In this document: piece by piece, positions 1-8,065 of the stretch | How the letters are laid out: every line of letters starts with the position of its first letter | Numbering within the stretch: the stretch's first letter is position 1 | DNA from: PVC group bacterium | GTDB lineage: Bacteria > GCA-001730085 > JADFSZ01 | Assembly (NCBI GenBank): GCA_022560555.1 | Contig: JADFSZ010000013.1 | Coordinates: 1-16,636, forward strand | Direction: 5' to 3' | Length of the DNA: 16,636 nt | Notes under the pieces: model-generated | Database searches by the model: none | Told to the model about the DNA's origin: nothing | The model's input: the letters and a program-made list of their open reading frames with translations, nothing else | Made by a program: the position numbers and the translations under genes

Positions 1-1
1 G

Positions 2-112
2 TTTACATACAGCTATAGAAACTTTGTAGATCCGAGTGGAATTTTACCATCCTACGCTCAATTTATATTTGCGAATGGCATAACAGAATCTGAAATGTAT
101 GGCGTAAGATAA
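2..112 (+). CDS. 3' end of an unidentified ORF that enters from the left window edge (FTYSYRNFVDPSGILPSYAQFIFANGITESEMYGVR*)
   Basis: Frame 2 is open from the window edge to TAA at 110-112. It is co-directional with the two following accessory genes. No family recognised. Confidence 0.3.
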   Translation, partial: FTYSYRNFVDPSGILPSYAQFIFANGITESEMYGVR

Positions 113-173
113 CAAAGAGTATAACAAGCCCAGAAAACCGTACAATGCAGGGTTGGAATAATAAAGAAAGGAG

Positions 174-602
174 ATGGCCCCGGTGGAAAGTAATGACAGA
201 AAAGAACAATTTATTGAAATGAGAGCAAAAGGGATAAGCTATGACAAGATTTCCAGGGCCCTAGCTGTATCTAAGCCCACTCTTGTGAGATGGAGTAAAG
301 GTTTATCACAAACCATTAAGAATATGAAAGCCATCGAATTAGAGGTGCTGCTTGAAAAATATTATGCTACCAAAGTGAAAAGGATTGAACTCTTTGGAGA
401 GAAATTAAAGTGTATCAAAGACGAATTGGATAAAAGGGAATTGTCAGAGGTCTCTACAGAGAAGCTTTTTGAATTATACGTTAGATTTATCGAAATTCTC
501 AAGAAAGAGGTAGTAGATGTAGTATTTAGCGCGGAAAGTGACGTCATCGAGATGGTACATAAAATGAGTCAAGAAATAAATACTGAAACCTGGGGTGGAT
601 GA
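174..602 (+). CDS. Helix-turn-helix DNA-binding protein with a coiled-coil-like C-terminal half; mobile-element-type regulator or small-terminase-like
   Basis: 142-aa ORF. The N-terminus RKEQFIEMRAKGISYDKISRALAVSKPTLVRWSK resembles resolvase/transposase-type HTH. The rest is K/E/L-rich and probably helical. AAAGGAG lies immediately upstream of the ATG, which is unusually short spacing. Confidence 0.55.
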   Translation: MAPVESNDRKEQFIEMRAKGISYDKISRALAVSKPTLVRWSKGLSQTIKNMKAIELEVLLEKYYATKVKRIELFGEKLKCIKDELDKRELSEVSTEKLFELYVRFIEILKKEVVDVVFSAESDVIEMVHKMSQEINTETWGG

Positions 603-626
603 TAACAAAAGTTAACCGTTTTGTTA
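603..626. repeat. Perfect 8-bp inverted repeat TAACAAAA-N8-TTTTGTTA between the HTH gene and the excisionase-like gene
   Basis: TAACAAAA (603-610) and TTTTGTTA (619-626) are exact reverse complements. The loop gttaaccg contains the palindrome GTTAAC. No T-tract follows, so it looks more like an operator than a terminator. Confidence 0.4.
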
Positions 627-657
627 CCACTTTAGCAATGGAGGAGTAGATTGCCTG

Positions 658-840
658 ATGGAGAAGCGCTATATAAGTTCACAAGAGTTATCTGATTTTA
701 TTGGAGTTAAACCTCAAACCCTTCGAAAATGGGTCTGCTATCGTAAGATTCCTTTTTTCAAAGTAGGAAGAATGGTCAAGTTTGACCTCCGAGAAATAGA
801 GAAATGGATGGAGAAAAAACGCAGAAAAGCTCTATATTGA
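658..840 (+). CDS. Excisionase / AlpA-family (HTH_17-type) DNA-binding protein
   Basis: 60-aa ORF. YISSQELSDFIGVKPQTLRKWVCYRKIPFFKVGRMVKFDLREIEKWM fits the excisionase-family winged-HTH pattern. GGAGGAG (641-647) lies 10 nt upstream of the ATG. Confidence 0.75.
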   Translation: MEKRYISSQELSDFIGVKPQTLRKWVCYRKIPFFKVGRMVKFDLREIEKWMEKKRRKALY

Positions 841-904
841 CAACTACCCAAAACTATAGTAATGTATAGAACATGGCTTTGAAGAAAGGGATTCTTCGAT
901 AATC

Positions 905-943
905 AAAATCAAAATAAAACCCATCTTGAGAAAAGACGGGTTT
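905..943 (-). terminator. Intrinsic terminator forming the expression platform of the cobalamin riboswitch
   Basis: Minus-strand RNA reads ACCCGUCUU-uucuc-AAGAUGGGU followed by UUUUAUUUUGAUUUUG. The stem is 9 bp. Its one non-Watson-Crick position is a G.U wobble on the minus strand but an A.C mismatch on the plus strand, which favours minus-strand function. Confidence 0.75.
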
Positions 944-999
944 AAGAGATCAATAACCTAGAGCCATGTCCCCTATCCTCGAGGGTCAAGCGTGTTTAC

Positions 1000-1144
1000 T
1001 CGCTAGCAGGCTTTCTGGCTCACGGCTTATCTACTCGCCCTGCCTTCCCACCCCAAATCTTCGGAGCAGTGGCTCTTTGGCTTTCGTATCCGTTTACAGC
1101 AGCGGGTCTGCACCTGATTTTCACAGGTTTTCCTACACTAACGA
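1000..1144 (-). promoter_or_regulatory. Cobalamin (B12) riboswitch aptamer
   Basis: Minus-strand RNA reads UCGUUAGU GUAGGAAAACCUGUGAAAAUCAGGUGCAGACCCGCUGCUGUAAACGG ... GCCACUGCUCCGAAGAUUUGGGGUGGGAAGGC ... GAGCCAGAAAGCCUGCUAGCGA. This matches the conserved cobalamin riboswitch core as seen in the E. coli btuB leader: GGAA..CC.GUG..AAUC.GG..GAC.CGC.GC.GUAA, then CACUG...GGUGGGAAG, then the B12 box GCC.GAA.(A/G)CCUGC. P1 closes 1144-1137 with 1007-1000 (8 bp, two of them G.U). Confidence 0.88.
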
Positions 1145-1181
1145 AATGACTGTTTACAAAGAACGAAATTTAACAGCATCC

Positions 1182-1211
1182 AAAATAGCACGTCTTCAGA
1201 TAATTTGTCAA
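1182..1211 (-). promoter_or_regulatory. Predicted sigma70-type promoter for the riboswitch transcript
   Basis: On the minus strand: -35 TTGACA (1211-1206), an 18-nt spacer ending in an extended-10 TGc, then -10 TATTTT (1187-1182). The predicted TSS near 1177 is about 33 nt upstream of P1. Confidence 0.5.
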
Positions 1212-1230
1212 TGGCTTATTTTTCGCCTCT

Positions 1231-1258
1231 TTTACAGAAGGTTCCTTTTATGTATAAT
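1231..1258 (+). promoter_or_regulatory. Predicted sigma70-type promoter for the adenosyltransferase gene, divergent from the riboswitch promoter
   Basis: -35 TTTACA (1231-1236), 16-nt spacer, -10 TATAAT (1253-1258). GGAAG (1277-1281) lies 5 nt before the ATG at 1287. Confidence 0.5.
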
Positions 1259-1286
1259 ACACCGATTCATATCCACGGAAGAATTT

Positions 1287-1892
1287 ATGTCGCTACATAT
1301 TCATCGGGTATATACAAAAATCGGAGATGACGGATTAACACAACTTATGGGATCTCCCCGCGTTCCAAAGCATTCGCTTCCCATCGAATGCCTCGGGGCC
1401 TGTGACGAACTATGCGCTTTTATCGCCATGATTTCGATTCATTTAAAAGCTGTGAAAACGAAAAAGGTGTTTTCCGGGCAGATTATAAAACTGCTCACCC
1501 AAATCCAAAATGATGTGTTTGACATCGGGTACATCGTCACACACTCGAAACTTTCAGCCCATGATGCCCAATCCGTTTTTCCAACAAATAAAGTGGATCT
1601 TCTCGAAAAATGGCTGGACACGTGGTCTTCAGAACTCCCGCCTTTGATGTCTTTTATACTGGGCGGAGGAGGTATTCTTTCAGGTTCAACACACGTAGCG
1701 CGTACTATCTGCAGAAAAACAGAGAGGCTGTTCTGGGCCTATCAAAAAAAGAGGCGCTTGCCTTTGAGCTGTCTCAAATACCTTAATCGCTTATCGGATT
1801 TTTTGTTTGTGCTTGCCCGGAAATTGGCTTTCACATTCCACGAAAACGAAACCCTTTGGAATATCCCGAAAATCCCGCACCGAAAAAAATAA
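1287..1892 (+). CDS. pduO: PduO-type ATP:cob(I)alamin adenosyltransferase
   Basis: From the internal Met108 of ORF 966..1892 the protein reads MSLHIHRVYTKIGDDGLTQL...FILGGGG...HVARTICRKTERL...YLNRLSDFLFVLAR. This matches the PduO-family pattern YTKxGDxGxT / FILPGG / ARTVCRRAER / YLNRLSDYLF. The 5' 321 nt of the track ORF overlap the riboswitch and promoters and are not coding. Confidence 0.85.
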   Translation: MSLHIHRVYTKIGDDGLTQLMGSPRVPKHSLPIECLGACDELCAFIAMISIHLKAVKTKKVFSGQIIKLLTQIQNDVFDIGYIVTHSKLSAHDAQSVFPTNKVDLLEKWLDTWSSELPPLMSFILGGGGILSGSTHVARTICRKTERLFWAYQKKRRLPLSCLKYLNRLSDFLFVLARKLAFTFHENETLWNIPKIPHRKK

Positions 1893-1904
1893 AAAACCAA
1901 AAGC

Positions 1905-2333
1905 TTAAAGAAGATTTTCGACCTTTAGCAGTTTCTTCTTTTTCAAAATCCCGGATGAAAATCCACCGAGATCCCCATCGGATCGAACGACATAGTGACA
2001 CGGAATGAGAATCGGTGTACGGTTTTTGCTCATCACGCGGCCAACCGCGCGCGCGGCTTTCGGAACTCCCCCCTTTACGGCAAGTTCTTTGTAAGATAAG
2101 AGGCGCCCTGTTTTTCGTCTGTAAAGGGCCTTGAGGATCTTTTTTTCGAAAAGGGTGTATCTACCCCAATCAATTGAAACAGAGTTAAAACGCCGCAACC
2201 CCGTATCGCAATATTGAATTAAGGATGCTTTTAGTTTTTTTAAATCTAAATCATCCCTGTTTTCAACTCGCCCTTTTTGAAAATTAATAGAATAAACTTT
2301 TTTAGCCCGCATTTCCAGATGAATCCACCCCAT
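1905..2333 (-). CDS. ogt: Methylated-DNA--protein-cysteine methyltransferase (Ogt/MGMT family)
   Basis: The C-terminal domain reads SYKELAVKGGVPKAARAVGRVMSKNRTPILIPCHYVVRSDGDLGGFSSG, with the active-site PCH motif. The start is moved to Met44 (ATG 2333-2331), just downstream of the tgt stop; Met51 at 2312 is an alternative. The longer track ORF would overlap tgt. Confidence 0.8.
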   Translation of the reverse strand: MGWIHLEMRAKKVYSINFQKGRVENRDDLDLKKLKASLIQYCDTGLRRFNSVSIDWGRYTLFEKKILKALYRRKTGRLLSYKELAVKGGVPKAARAVGRVMSKNRTPILIPCHYVVRSDGDLGGFSSGILKKKKLLKVENLL

Positions 2334-2349
2334 ATTTTTCGAATAAATA

Positions 2350-3504
2350 TTATCGGCTGCGACAAACTTTTTCAGATTTGTTCGACTGATACTCTTTGCA
2401 GAATTCTTTTTTGTAGTTTTCAAATGTGCCCTCCTCAATATGTTCGCGGCATTCCCGCACAAGGTTTAAAACAAAGTGAAGATTATGTATCGAATTTAGA
2501 TGCAATCCCAATATTTCCTGAGCCTGCATCAAATGCCGCAAATACGCCTTTGTAAATTTTTGACATGTAGCGCATGCACACCCCTCTTCTATCGGAGTAA
2601 AATCCTCGATGAATCTAGCGTTTCGAATGTTGATCGGCCCCTGTCTTGTGAAAAGAGACCCATTTCTGGCATTTCTGGTCGGCATCACACAATCAAACAT
2701 ATCAATACCTTCCCCGATCGCTCTCACCAAATCCACGGGTTCTCCGACTCCCATCAGATATCGGGGACGGTCTTCGGGCAAAAGATCAATAAAACTATCC
2801 AACACCCGGTACAATTCATCCCGCTCCTCTCCAACAGATAATCCGCCAATAGCATACCCGGGGAAATCCAAGCTCAACAATTCTTCGGCTGATTCTACCC
2901 GCAAATCAGGAAACATCCCTCCTTGAATAATTCCAAAGAGCATCTGACTGGGGTCTTGCCTTTGCACAAGAAATCGCTCTTTGGAAAGGGCGGCCCAGCG
3001 ATGTGTCCTCTGAAGAGAAATCCGGACTTCTTCTTGGGAGGCATCATGACTCACACATTCATCAAGCGGCATCAGTATATCTGAGCCCAACTGCAGCTGA
3101 AGATCAATCACTTTTGCGGGAGTTAACTCATGTTTGGATCCGTCAATATGTGACTGAAACGTGACACCCAAGTCTGTAATTGATCTAAGACGCGCTAAGC
3201 TAAAAACTTGAAACCCACCGCTGTCCGTTAATATCGGCTTTGGCCAAGCCATAAACTCATGAAGCCCGCCCGCTTTTTGAATGATGTCACACCCGGGCCT
3301 TAAATTGAGATGATAGGTGTTCGATAAAACAATCTCAGTTCCCATCTTCATCAAGTCATCGGGAGACAATGTCTTCACAGTCGCGAGAGTGCCAACAGGC
3401 ATAAAGACGGGAGTTTCGATCAGGCCATGGGCTGTTTGAAGTTCACCGGTACGCGCGCGCGTTTTTGCATCATGGGCCTTACGAATAAATGACATGCCGC
3501 TCAT
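2350..3504 (-). CDS. tgt: tRNA-guanine transglycosylase (queuine tRNA-ribosyltransferase)
   Basis: 384 aa. Motifs: RARTGELQTAHGLIETPVFMPVGT, LTDSGGFQ, MPLDEC, and the zinc site CACATC...H. Length is typical. Confidence 0.95.
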   Translation of the reverse strand: MSGMSFIRKAHDAKTRARTGELQTAHGLIETPVFMPVGTLATVKTLSPDDLMKMGTEIVLSNTYHLNLRPGCDIIQKAGGLHEFMAWPKPILTDSGGFQVFSLARLRSITDLGVTFQSHIDGSKHELTPAKVIDLQLQLGSDILMPLDECVSHDASQEEVRISLQRTHRWAALSKERFLVQRQDPSQMLFGIIQGGMFPDLRVESAEELLSLDFPGYAIGGLSVGEERDELYRVLDSFIDLLPEDRPRYLMGVGEPVDLVRAIGEGIDMFDCVMPTRNARNGSLFTRQGPINIRNARFIEDFTPIEEGCACATCQKFTKAYLRHLMQAQEILGLHLNSIHNLHFVLNLVRECREHIEEGTFENYKKEFCKEYQSNKSEKVCRSR

Positions 3505-3549
3505 TTTACATAAGAGCTTTCGGATTGTACAGGAATAGATAGATGGGAC

Positions 3550-4056
3550 TTAGAAGGCGCCGCTTTTTTTAGTATTGTCCTCGAGAGCCACTTCCAGATT
3601 TCTCCATTGTCCGGAAAGCTCTTCAATACAAAGAACAAGTTGCCGTACTTCAGGATAGAGGGTGTTGACAATTTTTGTTTTTTGATAAATTTCCGGTACG
3701 GACATCTCTTTCATAAGAACGGAGAACTTATTTAGTATTTCTGTTTTTTCTCTCGGAAACACAATCGAGGATTTAATCAAAGCTTCAACAAACTCTTTGA
3801 TCATTTGAGCCAAATGAACTTTTCCGAATCTGTGAAAATATTTAATTGCTTGATCAACACGGTATAGATGGACTCTCTCAATATGTTTCAGGGCATCAAC
3901 TGATATGTCCAAGAATTCACATGTAAAATCTTCAGGTATCAGTTCGGTCTCTTCAGGAATTTTGGCCGGTTTCTTTTTACGGAGGATGGCCAAATACCCT
4001 TTAATCTCTTCGGCCAAATTTTCCATGTATTCAAATTTAAACTTTCTCTTATTCAT
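3550..4056 (-). CDS. Hypothetical protein (168 aa), first gene of the tgt-ogt transcription unit
   Basis: Clean ORF. AAGGAG lies 9 nt upstream of the ATG, and a strong predicted promoter sits about 100 nt upstream. The gap to tgt is 45 nt. No family recognised; the sequence is probably all-helical. Confidence 0.6.
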   Translation of the reverse strand: MNKRKFKFEYMENLAEEIKGYLAILRKKKPAKIPEETELIPEDFTCEFLDISVDALKHIERVHLYRVDQAIKYFHRFGKVHLAQMIKEFVEALIKSSIVFPREKTEILNKFSVLMKEMSVPEIYQKTKIVNTLYPEVRQLVLCIEELSGQWRNLEVALEDNTKKSGAF

Positions 4057-4160
4057 ACCTTTTCACTCCTTTTGTAACAGAGACAATGCGCCGTACAGTT
4101 AAATGCGCAAGAAGCATGCCAAACAATAAATTTGTAAGCACTTAATATTAAATGGGTTAG

Positions 4161-4188
4161 ATTATGACCAAGAATTAGAAAATGTCAA
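4161..4188 (-). promoter_or_regulatory. Predicted sigma70-type promoter for hypothetical-tgt-ogt
   Basis: On the minus strand: -35 TTGACA (4188-4183), 16-nt spacer, -10 CATAAT (4166-4161). Confidence 0.55.
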
Positions 4189-4201
4189 AAATACTTAACA
4201 T

Positions 4202-4219
4202 TGTTACATCTGTGTAACA
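4202..4219. repeat. Palindrome TGTTACA-N4-TGTAACA just upstream of the -35; candidate operator and/or weak moxR terminator hairpin
   Basis: TGTTACA (4202-4208) and TGTAACA (4213-4219) are exact reverse complements. A further TGTAACA copy lies at 4072-4078 beside the RBS of the 168-aa gene, and a near-copy TTTGTAAG lies at 4131-4138. Confidence 0.4.
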
Positions 4220-4249
4220 TTTTTCGATAGGGCCCTATAGTAAATATAT

Positions 4250-5242
4250 TTAAGGTACTTCAATCACGTTGAAGATTTTTTCGATGATATGTTCGCTCGT
4301 CAGATCCTCTGCCTCGGCTTCATACGTAATGATTACACGATGCCTTAGGATATCCATTCCAACCGATTTAACATCATGCGGAGTAACATAGCCGCGTCCG
4401 TTCAAAAAGGCATGGGCCTTGGACGCCAAGGCCAGAGAAATCGTCGCGCGGGGGGATGCCCCGTATTCAATAAAACTCGCGATATCCAGATTATACTGTT
4501 TTGGATCCCTTGTTGCCATCACAATGTCGACAATATAGTTTTCAAGTTTTTCATCCAAGTAGATCTCATTGATAATCTGTCTGGATTTGAGTATAACATC
4601 CGGAGTGACAATCGGCGTTACTTCTGTCTCTTTGTCAACCACAGCCATCCGTTTTAAAATTTCTTTCTCTTCTGCTTTATTGGGATATGTTATCTTCAAC
4701 TTCATCAAAAACCTGTCCACTTGCGCTTCAGGCAAAGGATAGGTCCCCTCCTGTTCAATAGGATTTTGTGTCGCAAATACAAGAAACAATGTATCCAGCT
4801 TTTTGGTTGAGCTTCCCAAGGTGACTTGGCGTTCCTGCATCGCTTCAAGAAGAGCGCTTTGCACTTTCGCGGGCGCGCGATTAATTTCGTCTGCTAAAAT
4901 AATATTTGAAAAAATAGGCCCTTCTTTGACGGAGAAGGTCCCGTCCTTTGGATTATAGATCTGTGTACCAACGATATCGGCCGGAAGTAAATCAGGTGTG
5001 AATTGAATTCTTTGAAATTTAGCTTGAATGGTTTTGGCGAGGGTTGAAATAGTAAGTGTCTTGGCAAGTCCGGGAACACCTTCAATCAAAATATGGCCGT
5101 CTGTCAGAATCCCGATGAGGAGACGTTCAATCACATAACGCTGTCCAACAATAACTTTAGAGATCTCATCCCGTAAGCGCTCAAGGTAAATCCCCTCCGA
5201 TCGAACACGTTCATTTAACGCCTGAATGTCATCATGTCTCAT
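4250..5242 (-). CDS. MoxR-family AAA+ ATPase
   Basis: 330 aa. VIVGQRYVIERLLIGILTDGHILIEGVPGLAKT (Walker A), ILADEINRA (Walker B) and a C-terminal SPRATISLALASKAHAFLNGRGYVTPHDV lid are typical of MoxR/RavA-like ATPases. Confidence 0.9.
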   Translation of the reverse strand: MRHDDIQALNERVRSEGIYLERLRDEISKVIVGQRYVIERLLIGILTDGHILIEGVPGLAKTLTISTLAKTIQAKFQRIQFTPDLLPADIVGTQIYNPKDGTFSVKEGPIFSNIILADEINRAPAKVQSALLEAMQERQVTLGSSTKKLDTLFLVFATQNPIEQEGTYPLPEAQVDRFLMKLKITYPNKAEEKEILKRMAVVDKETEVTPIVTPDVILKSRQIINEIYLDEKLENYIVDIVMATRDPKQYNLDIASFIEYGASPRATISLALASKAHAFLNGRGYVTPHDVKSVGMDILRHRVIITYEAEAEDLTSEHIIEKIFNVIEVP

Positions 5243-5250
5243 ATATCGCC

Positions 5251-5664
5251 TTAAGACTTCTCTGTTCCGATTTTTTCCTTCTTGTCCTTTTTCCTTTTAG
5301 GTTGATTTTTTACACATTGTTTTTCCAGCCACTCAAGAATCACATCTCCTGTGTACTGAATTTCTTTCTGATTCAATTGTCGATTTATTTTAATTTTGTG
5401 CCATTTCTCAAGACATTTCCTACAGCAAGTAGCTGTTGCGTGCTGAGCTTTAAATACGGGATGTCCCGACATGGGTGTCTGCTTTCCGTCATTTTTAATC
5501 ACCGGCGGCGCAATCCGACGCGCTATGAAATCATAGGCATGCTTCTTTATCGTATCAAACCCTCGAACAGAAATATATTCCAAATCTTTTTCATCCAGCT
5601 TAAACTGACTTCTGAAACTTGATTGTGTTAAACGTTTCAATACATCATCGATTTTTTTAGACAT
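5251..5664 (-). CDS. DUF4186-family protein
   Basis: 137 aa. The core NDGKQTPMSGHPVFKAQHATATCCRKCLEKWH matches my recollection of the DUF4186 signature (GHPVFxAQHATATCCRxCLxKWH). Its ATG overlaps the ymdB stop (cATGTCTAA), which suggests translational coupling. Confidence 0.6.
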   Translation of the reverse strand: MSKKIDDVLKRLTQSSFRSQFKLDEKDLEYISVRGFDTIKKHAYDFIARRIAPPVIKNDGKQTPMSGHPVFKAQHATATCCRKCLEKWHKIKINRQLNQKEIQYTGDVILEWLEKQCVKNQPKRKKDKKEKIGTEKS

Positions 5665-6457
5665 GCTCCTCTTTCCCTTCTAGTTGGTAAACAACACGTT
5701 TAATCTCTGTAGCTTTTCCTGTTTTCTCATCAACTTCAACAGAGATTCCGGAAGCTCGCACATCATGAACGGCTACGTCAAATCGCTCCGGCTGCCTGGA
5801 TAAAAATGTCTTTATCACTTTTTCCTTATCACGTCCAATAACCGAATCATAAGGCCCCGTCATCCCGACATCCGTAATATAGGCCGTTCCCTTTGGCAAA
5901 ATCCGTTCATCCGCTGTCGGCACATGTGTGTGTGTTCCAAACATACAGCTGACTTGGCCGTCTAAATACCACCCCATAGCTATTTTCTCTGACGTGGCTT
6001 CAGTATGAAAATCCACAAAAATAATGTTCGTTTCTTTTTGAAGCTGTTTCACAAGTCTGTCCGCTTTTCGAAACGGACAATCCACCGGATTCATAAAAAC
6101 ACGTCCGATCAGATTGATCACACCCACCGATAGGCCGGTACGGGAGGAGACCACAACATGTCCTTGTCCGTGAGTGTCATCCGGATAATTAGCCGGACGC
6201 AGCAGACACGCCTGTTCGTCCAAATACTCTAAAACATCCCTCTTTTTCCATACGTGATCCCCGGTTGTAATCACGTCAATACCGCAGTCCAAAAGTTCTT
6301 CCGTTAACCTTTTCGTGATTCCGGACCCCGCCGCGGCATTTTCCCCGTTGACAATAACAAAATCGAATCCTTCTCTTTCTATAACGCCTCCAAGAACCAC
6401 TTTAAGAATATCGCGTCCGGGACGGCCAACCACATCACCTAATATTAAAGTTTTCAT
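5657..6457 (-). CDS. ymdB: YmdB-family metallophosphoesterase (2',3'-cyclic-nucleotide 2'-phosphodiesterase)
   Basis: 266 aa, collinear with B. subtilis YmdB: LGDVVGRPGR, NGENAAAG, DFHTEATSEK, GTHTHVPTADERILPKGTAYITDVGMTGPYDS. It sits immediately downstream of rny, as in Bacillus. Confidence 0.9.
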   Translation of the reverse strand: MKTLILGDVVGRPGRDILKVVLGGVIEREGFDFVIVNGENAAAGSGITKRLTEELLDCGIDVITTGDHVWKKRDVLEYLDEQACLLRPANYPDDTHGQGHVVVSSRTGLSVGVINLIGRVFMNPVDCPFRKADRLVKQLQKETNIIFVDFHTEATSEKIAMGWYLDGQVSCMFGTHTHVPTADERILPKGTAYITDVGMTGPYDSVIGRDKEKVIKTFLSRQPERFDVAVHDVRASGISVEVDEKTGKATEIKRVVYQLEGKEEHV

Positions 6458-6496
6458 ATCATGAGAGTCCGGATCATAGGTTCATGGTTTTTCGAT

Positions 6497-8065
6497 TTAT
6501 TTGGCATACTCAACAGATCGAGTCTCTCGAATGACCACAACTTTGATTTGTCCGGGATACGCAACTTCCTCCTCAAGTTTTTTGGCAATATTTCGCGCAA
6601 TCAAGGGAGAATCCGGATCTCCGATTTCGTCCGGTTTGACAACAACCCGAATCTCACGGCCGGCCTGAATAGCATGAACCTTTTCGATTCCGCGGAACGA
6701 TTCGGCAATTTGCTCGATTTTGGCCATGCGTTTTATATAGGCTTCCAATGTGTCACGCCTGGCCCCGGGCCGGGCGGCCGACATGGCATCCGCCGCGGCT
6801 ACCAACACCGCCATCAATGTTTCAGGCTCTTCTTCCCCATGATGACTCGCAACCGCGTTGCAAATCTCCGGAATTTCTCCGTATTTACGGCAGAGATTCC
6901 CGCCAATCACGGCGTGGGATCCTTCAACTTCATGATCAACAGCTTTGCCTATATCATGCAGAAACCCGGCACGGCGACACAACTGAATATCAACTCCAAG
7001 CTCACCGGCCATCGTTCCCATAAGATAGGCGATTTCTTTGCTATGTCTCAGAATGTTTTGCCCGTAACTGGTACGATATTTAAGACGTCCCATCAGACGA
7101 ATGAGCTCTGGGTTCATGCCCCGCAGACCCAATTCCAGCGCCGCCTGCTGCCCGTCTTCAACCATCTTTTCTTCGATTTCGTTCCGTGTTTTTTCAACAA
7201 CTTCCTCAATGCGTGCAGGATGTATACGGCCGTCAGATATCAGCTTTTCTAAACTGATCCGGGCGATTTCCCTCCGGACTTTGTTAAACCCGGAAATAAT
7301 CACCGCTTCGGGCGTATCATCAATGATCACATCGATCCCCGTGGCGGATTCAAAAGCACGAATATTCCGGCCCTCCCGGCCGATAATACGGCCCTTCATC
7401 TCATCATTGGGCAAATGCACAACGGAAACAGTCGTCTCTACCACATGCTCCGCGGCGTATTTCTGGATCGCGAGACCGACAATGTTCCTCGCGCGTTTCT
7501 TTGATGTTTCCCGCGTCTCATCTTCGACCTGTTTGACAATAATAGCGGCCTCATGCTTAACATCATCTTCGATCTTTTCCAATAAAAGCTTTTTTGCTTC
7601 CTGTGAACTCACACCGGAAATTCTTTCCAGTTCCCGCTTTTCTTCACTGATCAGGCAATCAATTTCTTTTGATCGCGTATCAATTTTAGTCTCCGCTTCT
7701 TTAACCGTCTTTTCCTTCTCGTCCAAATCATAAATCTTCTTATCAAGATATTCAAGACGCTTATCAAGATTAGTCTCTTTTTGCGCTAAACGTCTCTCGT
7801 ATTCGAGAAGCTCTTGCTTGCGGGTTTTGGTTGATTCATCAAATTCCGCCGTTGCTTTCAATTTCCAATCTTTTAACTCAAATTCAGCTTCTTTGCGCCG
7901 TGAATCAATCTCCTTTTCGGTTTCATCTTTAACACGCGTAATGTAATTTTCTGTATCCTTAATTTTCCGGCTAGTTAGAAATTTTCGCAGATAAAAACCG
8001 ATGAAAAAGAAAATGACGCCACAGACAAGGACCGTTAGGGCAAACCAAAACACAATCTGCTGCAA
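6497..8065 (-). CDS. rny: Ribonuclease Y
   Basis: 522 aa. It has an N-terminal transmembrane helix, a coiled-coil region, a KH domain ([15 protein letters not shown]) and an HD domain (HSKEIAYL...LHDIGK). The start is TTG, with AAGGGGGUG 6 nt upstream. Confidence 0.95.

Follow-up and report, generated by a model that had tools for sequence, protein, structure and literature searches.

A cobalamin riboswitch followed by no gene in a PVC group bacterium: probably a btuB-type leader cut off by foreign DNA

Near the left end of a contig from an uncultured PVC-group bacterium lies a cobalamin riboswitch after which no gene is found, and we describe here what surrounds it and how it may have come to stand in that position. 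The window, by which we mean the whole stretch of DNA analysed, spans an entire contig of 16,636 bp from an NCBI metagenome-assembled genome (MAG) labelled 'PVC group bacterium'. A cmscan search of the entire window against Rfam, in which the gathering score of RF00174 is 31.5 bits, places a cobalamin riboswitch aptamer at 1157..988 on the minus strand (84.1 bits, E 7.6e-20, model positions 1-189 of 189), and RF00174 is the sole Rfam family above its gathering score anywhere in the window. When matches in window 1-2000 were accepted up to E <= 1, nothing besides RF00174 appeared except one chance-level viral match. The B12-box region GAGCCAGAAAGCCUGC and the stretch GGGAAGGC are both aligned to the RF00174 consensus with high posterior probability, in keeping with the conserved core and B12-box motifs of this family (GGGAAGG ... 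AGCCAGnAnnCCUGC).

The aptamer is flanked by the signals of a transcription unit. Ahead of it, at 1182..1211 on the minus strand, is a promoter-like site made up of TTGACA (1211..1206), an 18-nt spacer and the extended -10 element TGcTATTTT (1190..1182); it agrees with the consensus at 10 of 12 positions, the TG is present, and transcription of the riboswitch RNA is predicted to start near 1175. The consensus match alone is not significant, since 8 such sites occur in the region scanned against 5.8 +/- 2.1 in shuffles; all of its bases are unchanged in the four sequences that can be compared, the window and three relatives (L001, L004 and L008, below). Beyond the aptamer lies an intrinsic terminator, T1 (905..943, minus strand), whose stem-loop at 943..917, AAACCCGUCUU-UUCUC-AAGAUGGGUUU, has 11 pairs and a 5-nt loop and is followed by the U-tract UAUUUUGAUUUUG at 916..905. 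Folded alone, the hairpin reaches -13.2 kcal/mol (z = -4.5), and 0 of 200 shuffles were as good. The original prediction, which was made from the letters of this DNA alone, had put a cobalamin riboswitch on the minus strand between a TTGACA/extended -10 promoter and a stem-loop with U-tract terminator, and each of these parts was found on inspection.

On the minus strand downstream of the riboswitch there is only one open reading frame (ORF) of at least 20 aa, a 26-codon frame (924..844) that starts inside the terminator stem and is preceded by no Shine-Dalgarno (SD) sequence, in agreement with the earlier statement that neither an SD nor an ORF follows. Thus, the usual setting of RF00174, the 5' leader of a gene for B12 transport, B12 synthesis or a B12-independent isozyme, is missing from the window. 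Two plus-strand genes converge on the riboswitch from the left end of the contig, and both are real ORFs, so that the convergent geometry was described correctly at the outset. The nearer one (658..840) encodes a 60-aa protein with the HTH_17 domain PF12728 (42.9 bits, cut-off 27) and a match to TIGR01764 'excisionase family' (34.5 bits, cut-off 28.8), and it also resembles phrog_66 'excisionase and transcriptional regulator' (E 1.6e-9); a role in excision is putative, as HTH_17 and TIGR01764 domains occur in plain regulators too. The farther one (174..602) encodes a 142-aa HTH_23-like protein with a coiled-coil (HTH_23 22.8 bits, slightly under the cut-off), recorded as MCH7504277.1 with locus tag IID04_01385. 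On the other side, divergent from the riboswitch, is a gene for a PduO-type ATP:cob(I)alamin adenosyltransferase (1287..1892, plus strand; PF01923 153.9 bits, TIGR00636 130.3 bits), which has its own promoter-like site at 1231-1258 with agreement at 11 of 12 positions.

Relatives of this bacterium carry the same riboswitch in front of a gene. Three readable contigs were found through one very close PduO cluster in a public protein collection, or through a BtuB cluster. L001 (ENA, BioSample SAMN18835368, 2407 bp) is 97.1% identical to window 883-2114; L004, a second, separate assembly of SAMN18835368 (2346 bp), is 96.9% identical to window 884-1902; and L008 (JGI sample 3300022707, 6867 bp) is 96.4% identical to, and collinear with, window 884-7548. 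Neither the GTDB genomes nor the JGI metagenomes, in which the lineage is barely sampled, yielded anything when searched with PduO, with the HTH protein or with a 27-nt terminator pattern. In all three contigs pduO is followed, in the divergent direction, by the promoter, riboswitch and terminator, then by an SD and a btuB-like receptor gene; the riboswitches of L001, L004 and L008 score 85.5, 85.5 and 80.4 bits, respectively. Between promoter and terminator the window differs from L001 and L004 by 5 substitutions, which leave the promoter hexamers and the terminator stem untouched. Downstream of T1 the relatives have a short second hairpin (T2), the Shine-Dalgarno sequence AGGAAAGGA and the ATG of the receptor gene, with SD and gene beginning about 90 nt beyond the terminator hairpin; the stretch with the T2 3' arm, the SD and btuB reads ...GGTTAGGGATTTTTTTATTTCTAATAGGAAAGGATGACCATG. 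The leader setting expected of RF00174 is therefore present at the orthologous loci, and the family assignment stands with its cis target missing from the window contig.

The receptor gene encodes a signal peptide, a TonB box and a Plug domain. In L001 it is a cut ORF of 376 aa, for which TIGR01779 'TonB-dependent vitamin B12 receptor' is the top-scoring NCBIfam model (E 6.6e-50), and the full-length orthologue P0254 aligns with that model end to end (28-606 of 614) at 286.9 bits, below the equivalog cut-off of 599.7 bits, for which reason we call the protein BtuB-like. Specificity for B12 is probable, judging from this best-hit similarity and from the riboswitch itself. The T2 hairpin that precedes the gene, AAAGAAUCCCU ... 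AGGGAUUUUUU plus a U-run, lies at 1150-1195 (minus strand) in L001, 1005-1050 (plus strand) in L004 and 185-230 (minus strand) in L008, and in its loop and 5' flank the relatives differ from one another far more than in the surroundings. When the T2 5' arm is paired with the btuB Shine-Dalgarno as an anti-SD, the energies are -9.3 kcal/mol in L001 and -11.3 kcal/mol in L004, values reached by <=2% of shuffles; the pairing is weak in L008 (-4.9 kcal/mol, 30% of shuffles). T2 may serve as another terminator, as an anti-SD element or as a target for recombination.

The window parts from its relatives inside T2. Alignments made with blastn end at window positions 883, 884 and 884 for L001, L004 and L008, respectively, which puts the breakpoint at 881..884, in the T2 loop and 22 nt past the U-tract of the riboswitch terminator; the window tracks the relatives through ...GAAGAATCCCTTTCT and then diverges completely. 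What is left of the btuB leader beyond T1 is a remnant at 884..904 (minus strand) that holds the T2 5' arm AAGAAUCCCU (884-897), and the T2 3' arm, the SD and btuB are absent from the window. The original prediction had named, as a finding that would speak against it, relatives in which the same riboswitch is directly followed by a gene with identical downstream sequence; the gene is indeed there in the relatives, but their sequence and that of the window agree no further than 883. Scans near the junction revealed neither a tRNA nor a tandem repeat nor an additional Rfam family. A 25-nt inverted repeat, I1 (739-763 / 877-901, 80%), was considered as a recombination site and rejected, since 12.5% of random sequences matched in composition contain one as good.

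To the left of the breakpoint, window 1-882 shows no blastn similarity to L001, L004 or L008. This foreign segment (1..882, plus strand) reaches the end of the contig, and its GC content of 36-38% compares with 41-48% in the adjacent kilobases; a further low-GC patch lies at 3.6-4.4 kb. L002, an ENA contig of 934 bp that stems from a different study, shares positions 1-580 at 99.7% identity and terminates at precisely the base of window position 1. Two assemblies that end at the same base suggest that a repeat or variable-region boundary lies just left of the window. Beyond 580 L002 diverges and continues with a 216-aa long form of the HTH protein and then with the N-terminal part of a serine recombinase, which is most similar to DNA invertases (phrog_125, E 1.9e-7). 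Since the HTH family has natural short forms of 135-142 aa and long forms of 206-216 aa, and since the 142-aa protein of the window ends as the natural short-form homologues P0123 and P0126 do, the gene at 174-602 is a short form and not a truncation artefact. The mosaic behaviour seen with L002 and the excisionase-family gene at the tip of the segment together suggest that it is DNA of a mobile element or genomic island, probably the end of one. Window 1-882 itself contains no recombinase or integrase gene, the recombinase of L002 belonging to a copy that diverges after 580; against phage and plasmid records it gave no blastn match; and among viral contigs the Xis-like protein had one distant match (48% over 27 residues, on the unrelated contig L005) and the HTH alignment none. 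The contexts of distant HTH homologues (L003, L006, L007) were also tried as a clue to the element and gave unrelated, unannotated neighbours and no Xis.

As an observation in its own right, btuB varies to an unusual degree between sequences of 96-98% identity (L004 1061-2344; L001 2-1129; L008 3-158; P0254). In L004 the gene is split by an in-frame TAA (L004 1772) where L001 has GAA, and the stretch that separates signal peptide and TonB box occurs as two alleles, EVIFEHKKIVVTASRV in L001 and L008 and EGEESAGETLPIFKSKDVIVVTASRV in L004 and P0254. Counting the uncoupling in the window, one receptor gene has been altered in three ways. The polymorphism may possibly reflect pressure from phages or bacteriocins; taken together, the uncoupling, the nonsense allele and the two N-terminal alleles hint at a B12 receptor under strain-level diversifying or inactivating pressure.

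We think it probable that the element is a transcription-terminating, B12-OFF leader of a btuB-like gene that has been cut off from that gene by foreign DNA at 883/884. Since the three relatives carry an SD and btuB after the same promoter, riboswitch and terminator, the stand-alone state would be secondary. An insertion, in a contig that reflects the real genome, appears to us the best reading of the junction. This is in essence one of two readings offered originally, namely that a riboswitch for B12 transport, arranged divergently from pduO, was uncoupled by an insertion, and the btuB genes of L001, L004 and L008 together with the break at 883/884 speak in its favour. A C-terminal BtuB fragment, P0253 (MCH7505640.1), is recorded from a PVC-group MAG, and its accession block fits that of the window MAG (MCH7504277/79); from this numbering btuB was probably separated from its leader and not deleted. 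Because the promoter, aptamer and terminator are intact, B12-dependent antisense read-through is a likely by-product of the insertion, and nothing points to selection for it.

Folding suggests how the unit would switch. In the minimum free energy (MFE) fold of the transcript cut at the terminator loop, before the T1 3' arm, positions 950..932, which comprise the flank and 5' arm of T1 (932..950, minus strand), pair with GGGAAGGCAGGGCGAGUAGAU (1049..1029, minus strand), part of the conserved aptamer core. Folding had been suggested at the outset as a way to look for an alternative between terminator and antiterminator, and such an alternative is predicted here. L008 differs from the window, L001 and L004 in the aptamer strand and in both the 5' and the 3' arm of T1. 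Its terminator has a different stem sequence that is still fully paired (13 bp), and its antiterminator duplex is retained despite changes on both strands (-15.8 vs -15.0 kcal/mol), a conservation that we regard as suggestive. Without B12, the aptamer-core strand GGGAAGGCAGGG...GAU (1049..1029) would pair with 950..932 and polymerase would read through; with B12, this strand would be locked in the aptamer, hairpin 943..917 would form, and transcription would stop at about 905. In the arrangement normal for the lineage, read-through would carry polymerase on, past the terminator hairpin, into the SD and btuB. Recombination at 883/884 would have put foreign DNA in place of the remaining leader and btuB, leaving behind an orphaned yet intact unit of promoter, riboswitch and terminator. 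In the window such a unit would give a terminated RNA of about 270 nt in the presence of B12 and, in its absence, a read-through RNA antisense into the excisionase-like gene. Both the antiterminator and the OFF logic are predictions that draw on folding, on few covarying positions and on general knowledge of cobalamin riboswitches.

Several points weigh against a btuB leader severed by insertion. The foreign DNA breaks off after 882 nt at the contig end, so that a single junction is visible, and the window shows neither a second one nor a target-site duplication, a terminal repeat or a recombinase gene. The receptor orthologue P0254 falls short of its equivalog cut-off. The expression platform exists in just two haplotypes, which makes covariation a thin basis for the antiterminator. 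An orphan riboswitch free of decay fits a recent event and fits equally well its retention for a new function. Finally, the contig comes from a MAG, so that a chimeric join or a mix of strains is possible, and if the join at 883/884 were an artefact of assembly or binning the riboswitch would still stand upstream of btuB in the real genome. The MAG contig does end inside the foreign segment; L002, which shares 1-580, stops at window position 1 and continues differently, marks the region as a branch point in assembly graphs; the BtuB C-terminal fragment, probably of the same MAG, sits on a separate short contig; and the arrangement is uninterrupted in all three other sources. However, a chimera in a de Bruijn graph needs a shared k-mer, and only the short stretch CCCTTTCT is common at the breakpoint. 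The break falls in an intergenic hairpin loop and not in a repeat, the best junction-spanning inverted repeat, I1, being no better than shuffles, and the foreign-side genes are intact, the HTH protein with its natural short-form end among them. We therefore consider an artefact unlikely.

The other reading offered originally, a riboswitch-gated antisense RNA directed at the excision genes, has fared less well. It would be an evolved antisense RNA of the kind known from Listeria, in which read-through without B12 hits the xis and HTH transcripts and lowers excision, and termination near 905 with B12 relieves this. Several features would suit such an RNA. A promoter-like site of its own precedes the aptamer, which is intact, as is the terminator; read-through would meet no ORF and would run towards the convergent excisionase-like gene, 65 nt away. 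Compared with the orthologues linked to btuB, the unit has not decayed by mutation, and for a B12 riboswitch that controls an antisense RNA there is a documented precedent in AspocR (PMC8079631). But the arrangement is seen once, in one MAG contig, and 3 of 3 relatives, at 96-98% identity, carry btuB in that place, from which it follows that promoter, aptamer and terminator were simply inherited from the btuB leader; at a divergence of only 3% the absence of decay is uninformative about selection. There is also no antisense-specific sequence feature, no dedicated effector element such as an ANTAR site and no other Rfam element in 1-2000, nothing apparent ties excision to B12 in function, the targets being an excisionase-family gene and an HTH gene, and the logic would be odd for the host, since low B12 would stabilise the very insertion that cuts off its B12 receptor. 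Such an RNA is in our view highly improbable. We hold just as improbable a programmed, reversible rearrangement in which recombinase-driven inversion or excision turns btuB on and off, for example in escape from phages or bacteriocins. The near-identical copy of the left segment in L002 adjoins a serine recombinase that resembles DNA invertases most closely, an excisionase-family gene stands at the junction, btuB is polymorphic in the population (the nonsense allele of L004 and the two alleles before the TonB box), and the breakpoint lies in a small hairpin with a loop that is hypervariable among relatives. Against this, no pair of recombination sites was found, the sole junction-spanning repeat being no better than chance; the window holds no recombinase gene; and the second junction is unseen. 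Scarcely less improbable is the combined idea that the orphan unit works as a B12-gated generator of antisense RNA over the excisionase-like and HTH genes, with cobalamin modulating both excision of the element and the re-joining of riboswitch and btuB; if true, cobalamin-modulated excision would amount to a metabolite-controlled, reversible gene disruption.

A severed btuB leader has parallels among known systems. The btuB leader of E. coli is the founding example of a cobalamin riboswitch and is controlled mainly at translation. The present element resembles btuB-leader riboswitches in its 84-bit aptamer with a B12 box, in its position upstream of a BtuB-like receptor gene in three relatives and in the ligand-dependent OFF logic expected of it; unlike the E. 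coli leader it has, in this lineage, an intrinsic terminator as its platform, and in the window contig the regulated gene is detached. In classical Vibrio cholerae the genomic island GI-23, fully sequenced, 25 kb long and equipped with defence systems, is inserted in the btuB riboswitch. There, as here, foreign mobile DNA lies between or inside the btuB riboswitch leader and btuB, beside a conserved chromosomal neighbourhood; in contrast, only 882 nt of foreign DNA are visible in the window, the host is an uncultured PVC-group bacterium, and the insertion lies downstream of the terminator and leaves the whole riboswitch intact.

The documented riboswitch-gated non-coding RNAs, AspocR and Rli55/EutX, are conserved and aimed at B12-dependent pathways (PMC8079631). 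AspocR of Listeria monocytogenes is a B12-riboswitch-controlled antisense RNA to pocR (Mellin et al. 2013, reviewed in PMC8079631). It shares with the window a B12 riboswitch with a terminator, read-through antisense to a convergent regulatory gene, and a short terminated RNA in the presence of B12 (about 230 nt in Listeria, about 270 nt as predicted here). However, AspocR has been demonstrated by experiment, is conserved and acts on a regulator of B12-dependent metabolism, whereas the geometry in the window would come from a single insertion event, is absent in the relatives and has a target without known tie to B12. Rli55 of Listeria and EutX of Enterococcus are riboswitch-controlled sponge RNAs whose ANTAR-binding elements sequester EutV (PMC8079631); they too have a cobalamin riboswitch that gates a non-coding RNA and not an ORF, but the window has neither an ANTAR element nor a eut context.

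The locus is thus a fresh example of known things in a poorly sampled lineage, and the finding is explained by them. It carries a caution, for a riboswitch that appears to stand alone and to be aimed at a mobile-element gene is a standard btuB leader severed from its gene, and one 2.4-kb contig from a close relative sufficed to reveal this. After GI-23 of V. cholerae it would be the second example of foreign DNA in a btuB riboswitch leader, here in an uncultured PVC-group bacterium. Provided that the contig is real, the locus is also a natural experiment on the effects of accidental riboswitch-gated antisense transcription into an excisionase-like gene.

The remaining observations concern chiefly the right-hand part of the window. 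The reading frame of pduO is open for 107 codons upstream of the real ATG at 1287 (966-1892, plus strand), antisense across the riboswitch, and several public assemblies (P0001, P0251, P0252) call a 308-aa 'PduO' that includes the riboswitch; the NCBI annotation of the MAG and the JGI contig give 201 aa. To the right of pduO are the housekeeping genes ogt, tgt, a MoxR ATPase gene, ymdB, the RNase Y gene, gatCA and pur genes. PADLOC defence-system models gave only sub-threshold matches, mad1 and PbeA. Between the tgt and MoxR ATPase genes lies a 168-aa ORF (3550-4056, minus strand) with no Pfam match, in the low-GC patch (35-37%), and it is kept in length and position in L008 (2872-3378). Finally, the longest ORF of the O6-methylguanine methyltransferase-like gene (1905-2462, minus strand; 185 aa, TTG start) overlaps the end of tgt (2350-3504, minus strand) by 113 nt, and its true start is probably downstream of the TTG, since the JGI call on L008 is 135 aa.

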